From Alphaproteobacteria bacterium (lineage in GTDB: Bacteria > Pseudomonadota > Alphaproteobacteria > JAAXGF01): a stretch of DNA of 64,000 nucleotides. A model generated the notes under the pieces. It saw nothing but the letters and a program-made list of their open reading frames with translations, made no database searches and had not been told where the DNA came from. A program made the translations under genes and the position numbers. The stretch spans positions 1,071 through 65,070 of the forward strand of contig JAYGED010000241.1 of assembly GCA_046582565.1 (NCBI GenBank), read 5' to 3'. Shown in pieces: positions 19,469-46,676 of this stretch (positions within the stretch are counted from its first letter, which is position 1; every line of letters starts with the position of its first letter).

Positions 19469-19545
19469 TGGCGCGCCCGGCGGGATTCGAACCCACGACC
19501 CCCAGATTAGGAATCTGGTGCTCTATCCTACTGAGCTACGGGCGC
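19469..19545 (-). tRNA. tRNA-Arg (anticodon CCT)
   Basis: Reverse complement GCGCCCGTAGCTCAGTAGGATAGAGCACCAGATTCCTAATCTGGGGGTCGTGGGTTCGAATCCCGCCGGGCGCGCCA folds as cloverleaf: acceptor GCGCCCG/CGGGCGC, anticodon loop TTCCTAA, T-loop TTCGAAT, encoded CCA. Confidence 0.9.
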
Positions 19546-33171: not shown

Positions 33172-33678
33172 ATGACTCGCGATCGCTTTCTCGACGCCAT
33201 GAGCCAGGCCGCCACCACGGTCTCTCTGGCCACCACCGACGGGCCCGCCGGCCGGGCCGGCATGACCGTGAGCAGCCTCTGCTCCCTGTCCGCCGGTCCG
33301 CCGTTGATCCTGGTCTGCGCCCATCACAAGAGCCGCGCCGTGGCGGCAATCCTTGAGAACCGCCGCTTCTGCGTCAATGTACTGCGTGCGGATCAATCCG
33401 ATCTCTCCGACATCTTCGCCGGCCGCATAGAATTACCCCATGGCGACAAGTTCGACTGCGCCGAATGGGGCAGCCTGGAGACCGGCTCGCCGGTGCTGGA
33501 GAGCGCCCACGCCGCCTTCGATTGCGACCTCGCCCAGCATAACCTGTGGGGCACCCACTACGTGCTGGTCGGCGAAGTCCGCGACGTTGCCTGCCTGGGG
33601 GTCTCCCGGGGCATCGGCGGCCCGTTGATCTACGCCAACCGCGCCTACTGCGTCCCGGCGCCCCTGAACGCCGCTTAA
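33172..33678 (+). CDS. NAD(P)H-flavin reductase (HpaC-like flavin reductase domain protein)
   Basis: 168 aa Flavin_Reduct fold with conserved S..S/C and GDH region; partner of preceding oxygenase. Confidence 0.7.
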   Translation: MTRDRFLDAMSQAATTVSLATTDGPAGRAGMTVSSLCSLSAGPPLILVCAHHKSRAVAAILENRRFCVNVLRADQSDLSDIFAGRIELPHGDKFDCAEWGSLETGSPVLESAHAAFDCDLAQHNLWGTHYVLVGEVRDVACLGVSRGIGGPLIYANRAYCVPAPLNAA

Positions 33679-36401: not shown

Positions 36402-37895
36402 CTAATCCCAAATCGGCTTACCGCTCCCCGGCAGGCCGAGCTTGGGCCATTTCTCGGTGACCGTCCGTATTACCTCGTCGTCCATGCGGATCAGGCGGCC
36501 CCATTGGCGGTTGGTTTCGGGCGGCAGTTTGTTGGTGGCGTCGAGGCCGATCTTGGAGCCCAGGCTGGGCTCGGGGCTGGCGAAATCGAGGTAATCGATG
36601 GGGGTGTTCTCGATCAGGGTGATGTCCCTCGCCGGGTCCATGCGCGTCGAGATCGCCCACATGACGTCTTTCCAGTCGCGGGCGTTGATGTCGTCGTCCA
36701 CCACGATGACCCATTTGGTGTAGGTGAACTGGCGCAGGAACGACCAGACCCCCATCATCACCCGCTTGGCGTGGCCGGGATAGGCCTTCTTCATGGAGAC
36801 CACGGCGATGCGGTAGGAGCAGCCCTCCGGCGGCAGCCAGAAGTCGGTGATCTCGGGGAACTGCTGGGTCAGCAGGGGGATGACGACCTCGTTGAGGGCC
36901 TCGCCGAGGATCGAGGGCTCGTCGGGCGGCCGGCCGGTATAGGTTGAGAGATAGATCGGATCGCGGCGCATGGTCATGGCGCTGATGGTGAACACCGGGA
37001 ATTTCTCCACCGCGTTGTAATAGCCGGTGTGATCACCGTAGGGCCCTTCGTCGCCGTAATCATCGAGGGAGACATGGCCCTCGAGCACAATCTCGGCCCC
37101 GGCGGGCACTTTCAGGGGCACGGTCTTGCATTCCACCAGATCGACCTTTTTGCCGCGCAGCAGCCCGGCGAACTGATATTCCGACAGGCTGTCGGGGATT
37201 GGCGTGACGGCTGCGAGGATGGTGCCCGGGTCGGCGCCGATGACCGCCGCAACGGGCAGGGGCTCGCGCTTCTCATCGGCCCAGCGGGCATGATGCTGGG
37301 CGCCGCCGCGATGCTTCAGCCAGCGCATCAGGGTTGTGTTGGGCCCGGTCACCTGCAGGCGGTAGATGCCCAGGTTGTAGCTGTCTTCGGGCCGCCCGCC
37401 CGGCCCCTTGGTGACCACCAGGGGCCAGGTGATGAGCGGCGACGGCTCGCCCGGCCAGCAGGTCTGGATGGGCAGTTTGGCGAGATCGATATCGTCGCCT
37501 GTGAGCACCACTTCCTGACAGGGCGCGGACTTAACTGTTCTGGGTTGCATGGCCATGGCCGTCTTGACCAGGGGCAGCATGGCCACCGCCTCGCGCAGGC
37601 CGCCGGGCGGTTTGGGCTGCTTGAGGAAGGCCAGGGTCTCGCCGACCTCGCGCAATTGGTCGGGCTCGCGGCCCATGCCCCAGGCGACCCGCTCGATGGT
37701 GCCGAACAGATTGACCAGCATCGGCATATCCGAGCCGATGACATTCTCGAACAAGACGGCCGGCCCGCCCTCGGCGATCAGCCGGGTCTGAATTTCGGTC
37801 ATCTCGAGATGGGGCGAGACCGGCTCGGTAACCCGCACCAGCCGCCCGTCGCGCTCGAGCCGGGCCATGAAGTCTCGCAAGCTGGAAAAAGCCAT
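36402..37895 (-). CDS. ubiD: UbiD-family (prenyl-FMN dependent) decarboxylase, 4-hydroxy-3-polyprenylbenzoate decarboxylase-like
   Basis: 497 aa; conserved UbiD core incl. metal/prFMN-binding residues region (..[25 protein letters not shown]..). Confidence 0.8.
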
Positions 37896-38348: not shown

Positions 38349-39293
38349 TCAGCTTTCCTTCTGGCTCATGGCCTCGCGGGCAATCTCGGCGATGCCGCTG
38401 ATCGAGCCGATCACGCTGGCCGCCTCCAGGGGCAGGAACAGGGTCTTCTGATTGTTGGATTCAGCGAAGGCGGTGAGCGTCTCCATGTAGCGCTGGGCGA
38501 TGAAATAATTTATCGCCTGCACGTCACCCTTGCCGACCGCCTCGGAGACCATGGCGATGGCCTTGGCCTCGGCCTCGGCCTCGCGCTCGCGCGCCTCGGC
38601 GTCGCGGTAGGCGGCCTCGCGGCGGCCCTCGGCATCCAGGATGACCGCCTGTTTCTCGCCCTCGGCCTTGAGGATTTCGGCCTGGCGGAAACCCTCGGCG
38701 TCGAGGATGTTGGCGCGTTTTTCGCGCTCGGCCTTCATTTGCCGGGCCATGGCTTCGACCAAGCTGGGCGGCGGCGCGATATCCTTGATCTCGATTCGCG
38801 TCACCTTGATCCCCCAGGGCGTCGTCGCCTCGTCGACCACGGTGAGGAGCTGGGCGTTGATCGTATCGCGCTGGGACAACAACTGGTCGAGATCCATCGA
38901 GCCCATCACGGTGCGGATATTGGTCATCGTCAAATTCAGGATGGCGTTAATCAGATTGTTGACCTCATAGGCCGCCTTGGCGGCTTCGAGTATCTGAAAG
39001 AAGACCACCCCGTCGACCGCCACCATGGCGTTATCGCGGGTGATGATTTCCTGGGTCGGCACGTCGAGCACGGTTTCCATCATGTTCATCTTGGCGCCGA
39101 TCCGATCGACAATCGGCACGATGAGATGAAGCCCGGGCCTCAGCGTGCGGGTATAGCGGCCGAACCGCTCGGTGGTGTACTCCATGCCTTGGGGCACGGT
39201 CTTGACGCCGCCGAACAGCAGGGCAACGGCGAGCAGCATGAACGCCACAACAAAGATCGAAAAACCGTCCAGGACTAGGGCTTCCATGATCAT
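38349..39293 (-). CDS. SPFH/band-7 (stomatin-like) protein
   Basis: TM anchor + SPFH domain and C-terminal coiled-coil (EAE repeats); ATG 39293 with GAGGAG RBS. Confidence 0.8.
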
Positions 39294-39398
39294 ACTCCTC
39301 TTCGATGAAGTCTTTTGCCGCCGCAACAGCTTATCACTCGATTAACCTCATTGTGATATTAATGCGGTGCCGAATGCGACCAATTGGGACCGACATTC

Positions 39399-40373: not shown

Positions 40374-42005
40374 CTACCGATCCTGTTTGATCATGGCGGC
40401 GGCTTTTTCGCCGATCATGATGGCCGGGGCGTTGGTGTTGCCCGAGGTAACCGTCGGCATGATCGCGCAATCGGCGACGCGCAAGCTCTCGACGCCGCGC
40501 ACCCGCAGCCGCTCATCAACCACCGCGGCGTCGTCCTGGCCCATCTTGCAGGTCCCGACCGGGTGAAAGATCGTGCCGCCGGTGTCGCGGATATAGGCGA
40601 GGATGTCGTCGTCGCTGGTGACCTCGGGGCCGGGCGTATGCTCCTCGACAATATGGCTGGCAAAAGGCGGTTGGGCGGCAATTCGGCGGGCCAGCTTGAT
40701 GCCGTCGATCATGGTGCGCCGGTCGGTCTCGGTGTCGAGATAATTGGGCCGGATCGCCGGCGGCGCGGCGCCATCGGGCGAGGCGATCGTCACCGTGCCC
40801 CGGCTTTCCGGGCGAAGCTGGCAGACCGACGCGGTGACGCCGGGGAAACGGTCCAGATCGAGCCCCGATCCCTGGACGCCGGCCAGGGCCTTGTTGGTGC
40901 TGAGCGGTAGGAAATGGATCTGCACATCGGGGGTCTCAAGCTCGGGCCGGGTGCGCGCGAAGACGCCGACCTGACCGGCGCTGATGGTCATCGGCCCCTT
41001 TCTGAACAGGGCGAAGCGCAAGGCAATGGCGATCCGGCGGTGAAGATAGCGGGTGTCGTCGTTGATGGTGATCGGCTGGTTGCAGCGGTACATGCATTTG
41101 ACCTGCAGATGATCCTGCAGATTGGCGCCGACGCCGGGCAGCTCATGGATCGGCTCGATGCCGTGTTCGCGCAACAGCGCGCCCGGGCCGATGCCGGAAA
41201 GCTGGAGCAGTTGGGGCGAGTTGATCGCGCCGCCCGAGAGGATAATCTCAGCCGCCGCCCGCGCCACGCGGGGCTGTCCTGAGGCGCGGTATTCGACCGC
41301 GACGGCGCGCCGGCCCTCGAAGACAATCCGGGAGGCCAGGGCGTTGACCTCGATATGCAGGTTCGGGCGCCCCTTCGCCGGCTTGAGATAGGCGACGGCG
41401 GCGGAACAGCGCCAGCCATTGCGGGCCGTCACCTGGAAATAACCGGCGCCTTCCTGCTCGGGCCCGTTGAAATCCGCATTCCTGGGGATACCGGCCTCGA
41501 CCGCCGCCTCGATATAGGCTTTGCAGATTTCCCTATCGTCGGTCATGTTCGCAACCCTGAGCGGCCCGCCGACGCCGTGCAGATCGTCGGCCCCGCGCTC
41601 CTGATCCTCGGCGCGTTTGAAATAGGGCAGCACATCGTCCCACGACCAGCCCGCATTGCCGAGCTGGCGCCAATGGTTGTAATCCTGCTGCTGGCCGCGC
41701 ATGTAGATCAGGCCGTTGATCGAGCTTGAGCCGCCGAGCACCTTGCCGCGCGGCCAGACCAGAGTGCGCCCGTTGAGGCCGGGGTCGGGCTCGGTGTTAT
41801 AGCACCAGCTCAGGTTCGGATCGAACATGGTGCGGAAATAGCCGACCGGAATATGGATCCAGGGATTGCGGTCCCGGCCCCCCGCTTCGAGCAGCAACAC
41901 GTGGATGCCCGGGTCCTCGGTCAACCGCGCGGCCACGGCGCATCCCGCCGACCCGGCGCCGACAACGATGTAATCGTAAGTTTGCTCGTTGATGTTCTCG
42001 GGCAT
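40374..42005 (-). CDS. GMC-family FAD oxidoreductase (choline dehydrogenase-like)
   Basis: N-terminal YDYIVVGAGSAGCAVAARL FAD motif, GMC_oxred_N/C signatures; ATG at 42005. Confidence 0.85.
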   Translation of the reverse strand: MPENINEQTYDYIVVGAGSAGCAVAARLTEDPGIHVLLLEAGGRDRNPWIHIPVGYFRTMFDPNLSWCYNTEPDPGLNGRTLVWPRGKVLGGSSSINGLIYMRGQQQDYNHWRQLGNAGWSWDDVLPYFKRAEDQERGADDLHGVGGPLRVANMTDDREICKAYIEAAVEAGIPRNADFNGPEQEGAGYFQVTARNGWRCSAAVAYLKPAKGRPNLHIEVNALASRIVFEGRRAVAVEYRASGQPRVARAAAEIILSGGAINSPQLLQLSGIGPGALLREHGIEPIHELPGVGANLQDHLQVKCMYRCNQPITINDDTRYLHRRIAIALRFALFRKGPMTISAGQVGVFARTRPELETPDVQIHFLPLSTNKALAGVQGSGLDLDRFPGVTASVCQLRPESRGTVTIASPDGAAPPAIRPNYLDTETDRRTMIDGIKLARRIAAQPPFASHIVEEHTPGPEVTSDDDILAYIRDTGGTIFHPVGTCKMGQDDAAVVDERLRVRGVESLRVADCAIMPTVTSGNTNAPAIMIGEKAAAMIKQDR

Positions 42006-42053
42006 AGCGCGATGATGGAACGGGAGGCTCTGGAAGGCTACCGGAAAGTGGCC

Positions 42054-42130
42054 GTCAGCCATCAGCCATCAAGCCATCAGCAGTCAGCCATCAGCCATCA
42101 GCCATCAGCCATCAGCCATCAGCAGTCAGC
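42054..42130. repeat. tandem heptanucleotide repeat (ATCAGCC/GTCAGCC, 11 units, two variants ATCAGCA, one 8-nt unit) ~50 bp upstream of GMC oxidoreductase start
   Basis: Seen directly: gtcagcc atcagcc atcaagcc atcagca gtcagcc atcagcc x4 atcagca gtcagc. Confidence 0.9.
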
Positions 42131-42168
42131 TTAAAACTTTCTCGCTGACAGCTGACGGCTGATCGCTT

Positions 42169-42414
42169 CTAGGCCATGTCGAGGGCGCGCTGATAGAGGT
42201 CCAGCAGGGCCTCCTGCTCGTTCCGCTCGCTCTGGTCGAGCTTTCTTAAGGAGACGATCCGGCGCATGGTCTTGGAGTCGAAGCCGTTGCCCTTGGCCTC
42301 GGCGTAGATGTCGCGAATATCGGAGGCTAGCCCCGCCTTTTCCTCTTCGAGCCGCTCAATGCGATCGATGTAGGACCGCAGATGCTCCGAAGCGATGCCG
42401 CCGACTTCCACCAT
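42169..42414 (-). CDS. gapR: GapR (DUF2312) nucleoid-associated protein
   Basis: SYIDRIERLEEEKAGLASDIRDIYAEAKGNGFDSKTMRRIVSLRKLD..EQEALLDLY closely matches Caulobacter GapR core; ATG 42414 with AAGGA RBS. Confidence 0.8.
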   Translation of the reverse strand: MVEVGGIASEHLRSYIDRIERLEEEKAGLASDIRDIYAEAKGNGFDSKTMRRIVSLRKLDQSERNEQEALLDLYQRALDMA

Positions 42415-45536: not shown

Positions 45537-46676
45537 TTATTCGAGGCCGAGAACGGTCTCGGATATGAGTAAATCGACAACCGCGTCGAGCGCCTCGCGC
45601 TGATCGGCGCCGGCATCGATGGCCGCGGCGTAAGCCCGGCATTGGCGGTCGGCGCTGGTGCCGTTCGCGGCGATCTGGCGGGTGTGGGCGACCTCGGCGA
45701 CGCAATCGAGGCGTTCGGCGTCTTCAGCCACCAGCTCGATGAGCTCGTCGAGCAGGTCGACAAACGGCACCAGGGCACCCTTGCCGAAATCGATCAGCTC
45801 GCCTTTCACGCCGTATCGCTGGGCGCGCCAGCGGTTCTCGTTGACCAGGATGCGCGGATAGGTGCGCCAGCGCTGGTTGGAGCGCCGCAGACGGTAGAGC
45901 ATGCTGACGATGCATTGGGTCAGGGCGGCCACGGCGGCGGCGTCTTCAAGGCGGGTGCAGACATCGGCAATGCGCATTTCCAGGGTCGGGTAGCGGGCGC
46001 TCGGGCGCAAATCCCACCACAGCTTGGTGGCGTCGGCCATGAGCCCGCCCTGGATCAATTGCGCCACCACGCGCTGATATTCGCCGTAGCTTTCATAGTA
46101 ATCCGGCAGGCCGGTGCGCGGCAGGGCGTCGAACACGGTGAGCCGGTAGGATTTGAGCCCGGTGTCTTCGCCGGTCCAGAACGGCGACGAGGTGGTCAGC
46201 GCCAGCAGGTGCGGCAGGAAGTAGCTCATCTGATTCATCAGATCGATGCGCAGGTCGTCGTCCTCGACCCCGATATGTATATGCATGCCACAGATCAGCA
46301 GCCGCCGGGCCACGGCCTGCAGATCGCGGGCCAGGGTCTGATAGCGGTCCTTGTCGACAAATTGCTGCTCCTGCCATCGCGCGAAGGGATGGGTCGAGGC
46401 GGCGATGGGCGCCAGGCCGTAGTCATTCGACACCTTGGCGACCGTGGCCCGAAGATCGGCGAGGTCATCGCGCGCCTCGCGCACGGTGGCGCGGGGATGG
46501 GTGCCGACCTCGATCTGGGCGCGCAGAAATTCAGGCGATACCCGGCCCTCCAGCATGGCCGCGCACTCACTCAGCATGGCCTCGGGCGGCTCGATGGCGA
46601 GATCGCGGCTGGCTTGGTCGACGAGGAGGTATTCCTCTTCTATGCCGATGGTCAGCGCTGGTGGGTTGAGCGGCAT
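45537..46676 (-). CDS. carboxylate-amine ligase, glutamate--cysteine ligase family 2 (YbdK-type)
   Basis: GCS2 signature N-terminus (IGIEEEYLLVD) and conserved core; 379 aa. Confidence 0.8.
   Translation of the reverse strand: MPLNPPALTIGIEEEYLLVDQASRDLAIEPPEAMLSECAAMLEGRVSPEFLRAQIEVGTHPRATVREARDDLADLRATVAKVSNDYGLAPIAASTHPFARWQEQQFVDKDRYQTLARDLQAVARRLLICGMHIHIGVEDDDLRIDLMNQMSYFLPHLLALTTSSPFWTGEDTGLKSYRLTVFDALPRTGLPDYYESYGEYQRVVAQLIQGGLMADATKLWWDLRPSARYPTLEMRIADVCTRLEDAAAVAALTQCIVSMLYRLRRSNQRWRTYPRILVNENRWRAQRYGVKGELIDFGKGALVPFVDLLDELIELVAEDAERLDCVAEVAHTRQIAANGTSADRQCRAYAAAIDAGADQREALDAVVDLLISETVLGLE

Follow-up and report, generated by a model that had tools for sequence, protein, structure and literature searches.

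Introduction

Repetitive extragenic palindromic (REP) elements and bacterial interspersed mosaic elements (BIMEs) are imperfect palindromes of enterobacteria and pseudomonads that lie in short intergenic gaps, where the neighboring genes are co-directional or convergent, and often just past a stop codon; REP elements have been proposed to stabilize the upstream mRNA and to attenuate transcription. Contiguous 7-bp units are found in the operator/centromere heptads (WATCACW) of the omega repressor of pSM19035, a plasmid-specific system in which converging and direct arrangements of the heptads are favored over diverging ones, and mycobacterial interspersed repetitive units (MIRUs) and the L5 stoperators provide further analogies to heptad elements. 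More generally, heptamers make up the most frequent class of long simple repeats in many prokaryote genomes (Mrazek et al. 2007, as cited in PMC4679880). The TAACTGA repeats of marine Beggiatoaceae, Cyanobacteria, and Bacteroidetes, which are intergenic, consist of a fixed 7-mer, form sets that are nearly all direct repeats (one inverted in 170), and end ~1 nt from start codons that lack ribosome-binding sites (MacGregor 2015, PMC4679880), and a preprint on Nostoc describes regulatory effects of other heptamer repeats, with no mechanism. Phase-variable repeats are exemplified by the poly-G tract of Moraxella uspA1 and the AGAT repeat of uspA2 (from the overview given in PMC4679880). Here, we describe a heptanucleotide array located between gapR and a gene for a GMC-family oxidoreductase in a 64-kb stretch of DNA (hereafter, the window) from an uncultured alphaproteobacterium.

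Comparison of 14 contigs shows that this array is a slippage-prone variable-number tandem repeat (VNTR), the first three units of which pair with an inverted arm directly past the gapR stop codon. The account that we favor, to which we assign a probability of roughly 0.55 when taken as a whole, is that the VNTR expanded from the 3' arm of this gapR hairpin, that the hairpin plays a role at the RNA level, and that the additional units are near-neutral.

A Polymorphic Heptanucleotide Array between gapR and the GMC Gene

Tandem Repeats Finder reported a period-7 array at positions 42051-42123 (10.3 copies, 89% matches), with a score of 116 that is the highest among the arrays with a period below 20 nt in the window. 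When parsed by hand on the minus strand, which is the coding strand, the array extends over 78 nt (42053-42130) and consists of 11 head-to-tail units with the consensus GCTGAYN, ten of which are 7 nt long and one, GCTTGATG, is 8 nt long. From 42130 to 42053, the order of the units is GCTGACT, five copies of GCTGATG, GCTGACT, GCTGATG, GCTTGATG, GCTGATG, and GCTGACG. The initial annotation of this region had described an eleven-copy heptanucleotide array with variant units; the copy number and the 8-nt unit are borne out, whereas the list of variants was incomplete, with two ACT units and one terminal ACG unit having been passed over. A two-unit probe allowing at most 2 mismatches yielded 10 matches against 0.82 expected, with 9 of the 10 in the heptamer array locus. 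Pairs of TCAGC/GCTGA cores spaced at a period of 7 nt occur 10 times in the window, compared to 0.165 expected, and all 10 are at the gapR-GMC locus, this count having detected no second TCAGC/GCTGA heptad element elsewhere in the 64 kb. With short head-to-tail units in excess of chance, the array belongs among the simple-sequence repeats.

The array starts 38 nt past the gapR stop codon and ends 47 nt ahead of the ATG of the GMC gene (42005), both genes being on the minus strand, in agreement with its earlier placement on the 3' side of gapR and ~50 bp before the GMC start. The identities of the two flanking genes are likewise backed by Pfam. The product of gapR (42169-42414, minus strand) is a protein of 81 aa (MVEVGG...) that matches GapR_DNA-bd (PF10073, E 7e-34), and gene callers also predict 81 aa in 8 related contigs. 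Read along the minus strand, the gapR stop codon TAG (42171-42169) is followed by AAGC, an inverted arm, a loop, the 11 units, GCCACTTTCCGG, TAGCCT, 17 nt, CATCAT, CGCGCT, and the ATG at 42005.

Public assemblies with exact copies of the gapR, GMC, and pyruvate-kinase proteins, together with one DNA-pattern scan, provided another 13 independent contigs of this species, with the scan of metagenomes contributing one more allele. The flanks of the array in these contigs are 98.2-99.85% identical to those in the window, and several contigs show 0-1 substitutions in 2-5 kb. As the initial annotation anticipated when it proposed a substrate for slipped-strand mispairing and a comparison of copy number among strains, seven alleles of 7-11 units were found in the 14 contigs, with length differences that are all multiples of 7. 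With units named by their last three bases, these are allele 11 in the window (ACT ATG5 ACT ATG TATG ATG ACG), 10a in L126 (ACT ATG2 ACT ATG ACT ATG TATG ATG ACG), 10b in L128 and L235 (ACT ATG3 ACT ATG TATG ATG2 ACG), 9a in L002, L003, L125, L130, and L131 (ACT ATG3 ACT ATG TATG ATG ACG), 9b in L001 (ACT ATG2 ACT ATG TATG ATG2 ACG), 8 in L129 and L225 (ACT ATG2 ACT ATG TATG ATG ACG), and 7 in L004 and L127 (ACT ATG3 TATG ATG ACG).

The alleles differ by the gain or loss of ATG units or of the ACT-ATG pair, as slipped-strand mispairing predicts. Assembly artifacts are unlikely because identical alleles recur across different assembly pipelines, with 9a found five times and 7, 8, and 10b twice each in independently made assemblies. 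Whereas every comparison between alleles shows an indel within the array, no more than 3 others were found in ~100 kb of aligned flank. The locus therefore displays whole-unit copy-number differences among close relatives within conserved flanks, as in a VNTR. One other candidate variable site, near 45834-45863, was rejected because the apparent difference came from a stretch of N within a scaffold.

Several other readings of the array were considered. The plus strand contains an open reading frame (ORF; 41853-42134) with HQPSAIS repeats, which was rejected as a protein-coding array because the allele differences of 7, 14, 21, and 28 nt would break the frame. The likeness of GCTGATGG to the Escherichia coli Chi site GCTGGTGG was dropped because positions 6-7 vary freely across the heptad family described below. 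Inspection by eye revealed no CcrM (GANTC) or CtrA (TTAA-N7-TTAA) sites in the array or the hairpin arm. On the minus strand, every GCTGATG unit opens a four-codon mini-ORF, ATG GCT GAT GGC TGA (42053-42123).

The Array Is Part of a Hairpin Just Past gapR

Overlooked in the initial annotation was an inverted arm of three units, GATCAGC CGTCAGC TGTCAGC (42144-42164, minus strand), that makes the array one side of a hairpin. This 5' arm begins 4 nt past the gapR stop codon, such that the first TCAGC core is 6 nt past the TAG, and is separated by the loop GAGAAAGTTTTAA (42131-42143), which is constant within the species and divergent between species, from the 3' arm, which consists of array units 1-3 (GCTGACT GCTGATG GCTGATG; 42110-42130). 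In both RNA and DNA folds, the three inverted heptads pair with these units to form a stem-loop of ~20 bp. The hairpin alone folds at -39.6 kcal/mol, compared to -17.4 kcal/mol for shuffled sequences (z -8.35), and for the entire 176-nt gapR-GMC spacer, the RNA fold has an energy of -83.8 kcal/mol (z -5.5) and the DNA fold one of -39.5 kcal/mol (z -4.5). As in intrinsic terminators, a stable G+C-rich stem-loop is thus present just past the stop codon. A scan of the locus against Rfam gave only sub-threshold chance matches to eukaryotic microRNA and small nucleolar RNA models.

The polymorphism leaves this structure untouched. All 14 contigs have the same 5' arm, loop, and first three units, and all alleles are predicted to form the same stem. 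The variable part, as delineated by allele comparison, is the set of eight units outside the stem (three GCTGATG units followed by GCTGACT, GCTGATG, GCTTGATG, GCTGATG, and GCTGACG; 42053-42109, minus strand); all indels within the array map to 42072-42104, and the number of units outside the stem ranges from 4 to 8 among the 14 contigs.

The Unexpanded Hairpin in Related Species

The nearest cultured relatives are Stella and Allostella (~69% identity in pyruvate kinase and ~64% in the GMC protein). The gapR-GMC synteny is kept in related species in which the GMC protein is 90%, 84%, and 82% identical to that of the window, and an unexpanded hairpin is located at the same site. In the species with 90% identity (L132), the TAG is followed by 9 nt, the heptads ATCAGCC GTCAGCG TTCAGCC, a 15-nt loop, and GCTGACT GCTGAAG GCTGACC, that is, three units on each side. 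A differing version of the 3+3 hairpin is found in L133 and L135 (82%), and L137 (84%) has a 4+5 hairpin in which two units are degenerate. These hairpins fold at -31.7 to -38.3 kcal/mol (z -4.8 to -5.5). In a three-species alignment, the TCAGC/GCTGA pentamer cores show no or almost no change and the loops are unrelated, with a double compensatory change in one pair only, so that the covariation signal for the stem in this alignment is weak. The eight-unit extension outside the stem is absent from L132, L133, and L137. Together with another relative that lacks a hairpin (L136, considered below), the sister species indicate that the hairpin is older than the expansion and that the expansion is specific to the window species.

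The patchy presence of the hairpin at one and the same site, found in some related species and absent from another, together with the degenerate units in L137 and the single copy in the 64-kb window, is what would be expected if the hairpin were a functionless remnant, left by a palindromic element that was small and either mobile or self-propagating, and if the array were a neutral microsatellite, an origin that we nevertheless deem very unlikely: the cores are conserved at 82-90% GMC identity while the loop diverged freely, neither target-site duplications nor a transposase were seen, and the wider family described below follows strong rules of position and polarity across phyla.

Two additional related species lack gapR upstream of the GMC gene. 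In L140 (1-1320), a DDE transposase gene occupies the place of gapR, and in L139 (1-90), the GMC gene is preceded by unrelated sequence that ends in a canonical terminator; both species keep the GMC promoter-like motif.

Putative Start Signals of the GMC Gene Lie Downstream of the Array

The GMC-family oxidoreductase gene (40374-42005, minus strand), which elsewhere is annotated as choline dehydrogenase-like, encodes a protein of 543 aa with matches to GMC_oxred_N (PF00732, 1e-54) and GMC_oxred_C (PF05199, 6e-42). The start at 42005 fits the length of the homologues, most of which have 530-545 aa. The heptamer repeat misleads gene callers at this point: an ATG at 42062, in the last units of the array, is in frame with the gene, and some callers use it, extending the product from 543 to 562 aa. 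This start was rejected because the ATG is absent in relatives and because of the length of the homologues.

An alignment of the 50 nt ahead of the GMC ATG in seven species revealed the common motif T(T/A/G)GCC(A/T)-N17/18-CATCAT-N6-ATG, with a spacer of 18 nt in one species and a variable spacer sequence. In the window, the putative -35 hexamer, TAGCCT (42035-42040, minus strand), lies 12 nt past the downstream end of the array and reads TTGCCA, TAGCCA, or TGGCCA in relatives; the putative -10 hexamer, CATCAT (42012-42017, minus strand), is 6 nt before the ATG and invariant in the seven species at fixed spacing. The motif is kept irrespective of the upstream DNA, including where gapR is replaced (L139 and L140). 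In L132 and L133, a promoter scan identified TTGCCA-17-CATCAT as the only sigma-70-like site (0.0-0.1 expected); TAGCCT of the window is weaker and falls under the threshold of the scan, which in the window spacer found no sigma-70-like hexamers at the array or the hairpin. No Shine-Dalgarno sequence precedes the GMC ATG, which, together with a -10-like hexamer only 6 nt away, makes a leaderless or near-leaderless GMC mRNA the simplest reading.

If this predicted promoter is real, the array lies upstream of the -35 hexamer because the conserved motif is wholly downstream of it, and unit gain or loss leaves the promoter-adjacent sequence unchanged because the array is periodic. The initial annotation had suggested that changes in copy number would alter promoter spacing or the 5' untranslated region of the GMC gene. 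Copy number indeed varies, yet no promoter-like elements overlap the array. Contingency loci have their repeats between the -35 and -10 elements, in the leader, or in the ORF, and, as far as the promoter prediction goes, the array is in none of these positions. Control of the GMC gene via promoter spacing is therefore not supported by the sequence, whereas an effect via read-through from gapR or via the distance between the hairpin and the promoter is possible.

A contingency or tuning locus, in which copy number would alter GMC expression through promoter geometry, the 5' untranslated region, or gapR read-through, appears on balance unlikely. Such a locus would account for the hypervariable copy number among otherwise near-identical genomes; the end of the array, 12 nt upstream of the -35-like hexamer, falls in the zone of UP elements and activators, and the length of the array determines how far the putative promoter is from the gapR hairpin. 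However, the array does not separate the -35 and -10 hexamers and overlaps neither, its periodicity presents the same promoter-proximal sequence in all alleles, relatives without the expansion or without any repeat retain both the motif and the gene, and the in-array ATG at 42062 is not conserved. Furthermore, the target would be a cytoplasmic flavoenzyme, unlike the surface or restriction-modification genes of the classical contingency loci.

A Wider Family of Heptad Hairpins

To place the gapR hairpin in a broader context, one genome per species was scanned for four GCTGAYN units, which yielded at least 120 loci (L005-L124), and the viral contigs of IMG/VR were searched symmetrically in both arm orders (L141-L220, L223, and L224). 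The family was collected by the GCTGA pattern, such that conservation of the pentamer is partly built in, and gene context was derived by crude ORF calling in G+C-rich DNA. The genome matches listed include Acidobacteriota, Chloroflexota, Cyanobacteria, Planctomycetota, Bacteroidota, Nitrospirota, Gemmatimonadota, Actinomycetota, and others, and the family is also present in Alphaproteobacteria and tailed phages. Among the genome matches listed, many arrays mix GCTGACG, GCTGATA, and GCTGACC, the pentamer being constant and positions 6-7 variable; after masking of the ascertained arrays, GCTGA/TCAGC was still the top period-7 pentamer core (23 vs. at most 6 for others); and a nearby inverted arm was always 5' of the array (17 vs. 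0). In the same set of listed matches, 36 of the 188 TCAGC-oriented arrays start 1-12 nt past the stop codon of an ORF of at least 100 codons, these being 36 of the 62 stop-linked arrays, with a spike at exactly 3 nt (TAG-CNN-TCAGC).

In IMG/VR, 82 loci match the pattern (TCAGCNN)3-N5..35-(GCTGANN)3, compared to 2 loci for the reverse arm order; the 82 comprise 97 distinct hairpins, among which there are 91 distinct loops. The phage elements occupy gaps between co-directional genes, often extending from "stop-(A)AGC" to "GCT-ATG" without a Shine-Dalgarno sequence, and the distance from stop codon to arm is mostly 1-10 nt. Family elements fold at approximately -43 to -45 kcal/mol, with helices of 5-7 bp split by small internal loops. 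Several siphovirus-like contigs (L155, L177, L214, L148, and L154, from UViG_3300045936_000120, 3300045933_000102, and 3300045941_000066) contain one heptad hairpin per 1.5-2.5 kb, and one of these hairpin-dense contigs encodes a head-tail adaptor, a tail terminator, a major tail protein, and a tape-measure protein. No Rfam match was obtained in five hairpin-dense phage loci.

The window element (42053-42164) has the family architecture, namely, at least three TCAGC heptads, a spacer, and at least three GCTGA heptads in that order, with the first TCAGC core within ~12 nt of a stop codon. It thus resembles the rest of the family in arm order, stop-codon adjacency, and location in a co-directional gene gap, and differs in that it is not beside a start codon. 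A search of a literature library that excludes subscription journals found no description of such a family, the matches being only primers and unrelated papers, and we provisionally regard (NNTCAGC)n-loop-(GCTGANN)n as undescribed. More tentatively, and with the odds against it, the gapR hairpin might belong to a single undescribed class that spans phyla and phages, in which converging GCTGA heptads, always with the TCAGC arm first and the GCTGA arm last, would extend from the stop codon of one gene and, in phages, up to the start codon of the following gene, and would serve as an intercistronic signal read by a conserved factor or by the translation machinery. If so, the fixed order and the non-covarying spacers would mean that such a factor or machinery reads the heptads themselves, the element could serve in coupling, insulation, or processing, and the window array would show that elements of this kind can expand by slippage. 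A common function would amount to a widespread, so far unannotated punctuation signal between genes and would make it possible to test why, among long bacterial repeats, heptamers are the most frequent.

The family data bear on two further explanations of the locus. The first is that the converging sets of GCTGA spaced at 7 bp are iterated DNA or RNA sites for a protein, on the model of the omega-repressor heptads, with the number of units setting the occupancy. The pentamer and the 7-nt period are kept across the family, whereas the spacers vary and are not complementary between the arms, loop lengths range from 4 to 35 nt, and the fixed arm order (in IMG/VR as well as among the genome matches listed) suits a polar protein array better than a simple helix. 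We nonetheless find this explanation improbable for the gapR locus, where, as in its orthologues, there is good pairing between the arms and a conserved stem; a candidate protein is lacking, a factor shared by many phyla and phages would need to be nearly universal, and part of the pentamer conservation stems from the way in which the family was collected.

The second is an intercistronic translation device, a hairpin that joins the upstream stop to the downstream start and, with TGA in three frames, couples or insulates translation. A GCTGANN array necessarily has TGA in all three frames, and in phages, the elements fill gaps between co-directional structural genes, with stop codons 1-10 nt before the 5' arm and "...GCTGAAA GCT ATG" directly after the 3' arm without a Shine-Dalgarno sequence, a behavior shared by the TAACTGA repeats (PMC4679880). 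The statistics on downstream starts, however, depend on crude ORF calls, and at the gapR locus, 47 nt that include the conserved promoter-like motif separate the array from the GMC ATG, and the in-array ATG is missing in relatives; for this locus, we therefore consider such a device quite improbable.

Origin and Probable Role of the Array

We favor a scenario in which slipped-strand expansion of the 3' arm of a (NNTCAGC)3-loop-(GCTGANN)3 stem-loop, directly past the gapR stop codon, would have given rise to the VNTR, such that the stem-loop would be the older, conserved element and the array its later growth. Most likely, the hairpin acts at the RNA level and gives the gapR mRNA a structured 3' end, which would stabilize the gapR transcript, partly terminate it or insulate it from the GMC gene's own putative promoter downstream, and limit read-through into the GMC gene. 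The extra units, which are outside the stem and upstream of the predicted GMC -35 hexamer, often vary by the gain or loss of one or two units and are probably near-neutral, altering only the distance between the hairpin and the promoter.

Several observations weigh against this scenario. A terminator scan did not find a U-tract 3' of the stem, which in the window species is followed by further GCUGAUG units rather than by a U-run, so that the hairpin is not a canonical intrinsic terminator. The hairpin is dispensable because L136, with a GMC protein of 79% identity, has gapR beside the promoter-like motif without a hairpin, the gapR stop being 19 nt from the motif. Across the family, complementarity between the 2-nt spacers of one arm and those of the other is at chance level (28% vs. 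27.3 ± 1.6% in shuffles), and hence, the conserved feature may be a pentamer array, for example, a protein-binding site, rather than a helix. Finally, the polymorphism was sampled in 14 contigs with one consensus allele per metagenome sample.

Under the favored scenario, the locus is a clean natural case of a bacterial microsatellite that grew out of a structured intergenic element, from one of its arms, while sister species of the window organism still show the ancestral state. It also cautions against taking every repeat ahead of a gene for a phase-variation switch.

Other Features of the Window

Three other sites with repeats or short indels were noted. An 8-nt tandem duplication (two copies of GTCCGCCG; 33288-33303) is located within an ORF of 168 aa (33172-33678, plus strand); contig L125 has a single GTCCGCCG copy, which splits the gene, and a flavin-reductase domain is found among the corresponding L125 gene calls. 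This difference may reflect a genuine frameshift polymorphism or else a mistake in the assembly. In contig L127, a 7-nt deletion at 37566-37572 truncates the gene call for a UbiD-family decarboxylase (36402-37895, minus strand). Tandem repeats of periods 6, 21, and 66 at 38559-38735 lie in an SPFH/Band-7 gene (38349-39326, minus strand) and encode a repeated Ala/Glu-rich coiled segment. The only Rfam match in the whole 64-kb window, and likewise the only ARAGORN match, is a tRNA-Arg (CCT) at 19469-19545 on the minus strand.

Comparison with Known Systems

Among the described systems, the TAACTGA repeats are the nearest that we found, and they share with the heptad elements a 7-nt period and a CTGA core (in another register, ACTGATA vs. 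GCTGATA here), an intergenic location pointing to the downstream gene, and stop codons in all forward frames with the reverse strand open. The phage members of the heptad family come closest, with direct repeats that abut a start codon lacking a Shine-Dalgarno sequence. The gapR array itself, with its GCTGAYN unit and an end 47 nt before the ATG at 42005, is not of the TAACTGA type, and the heptad family as a whole is distinguished by GCTGA plus 2 variable bases, by an inverted arm that is often present and in fixed order, by a beginning beside stop codons, and by a distribution across many more phyla and phages.

With REP elements and BIMEs, the gapR hairpin has in common an imperfect palindrome in a short gap just past a stop codon, but its arms consist of 7-nt periodic units. 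The hairpin sequence lacks the GTAG head and is present in a single copy in 64 kb, and there was no sign of a REP-associated tyrosine transposase (RAYT), although no search aimed at RAYT genes was made. The heptads of the omega system are likewise contiguous 7-bp units in direct and converging arrangement; given the differences in sequence and context, they offer a lead only. Classical phase-variable repeats resemble the array in being short tandem repeats upstream of a gene with strain-dependent copy number. They are located between promoter elements or in the leaders of surface-protein genes of host-adapted pathogens, whereas the gapR-GMC array is upstream of the predicted -35 hexamer of a gene for a metabolic enzyme, in an alphaproteobacterium that is uncultured and represented by metagenome assemblies only.

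Close counterparts are also the prokaryotic VNTRs with units of 5-11 nt (Mrazek et al. 2007, as cited in PMC4679880), which, similarly to the array described here, include head-to-tail heptanucleotides that change copy number by slippage and are intergenic, as expected of a unit that is not a multiple of 3. What sets the gapR repeat apart from these is that it is the arm of a hairpin that exists in unexpanded form in sister species, with the variable units confined to the part outside the stem.

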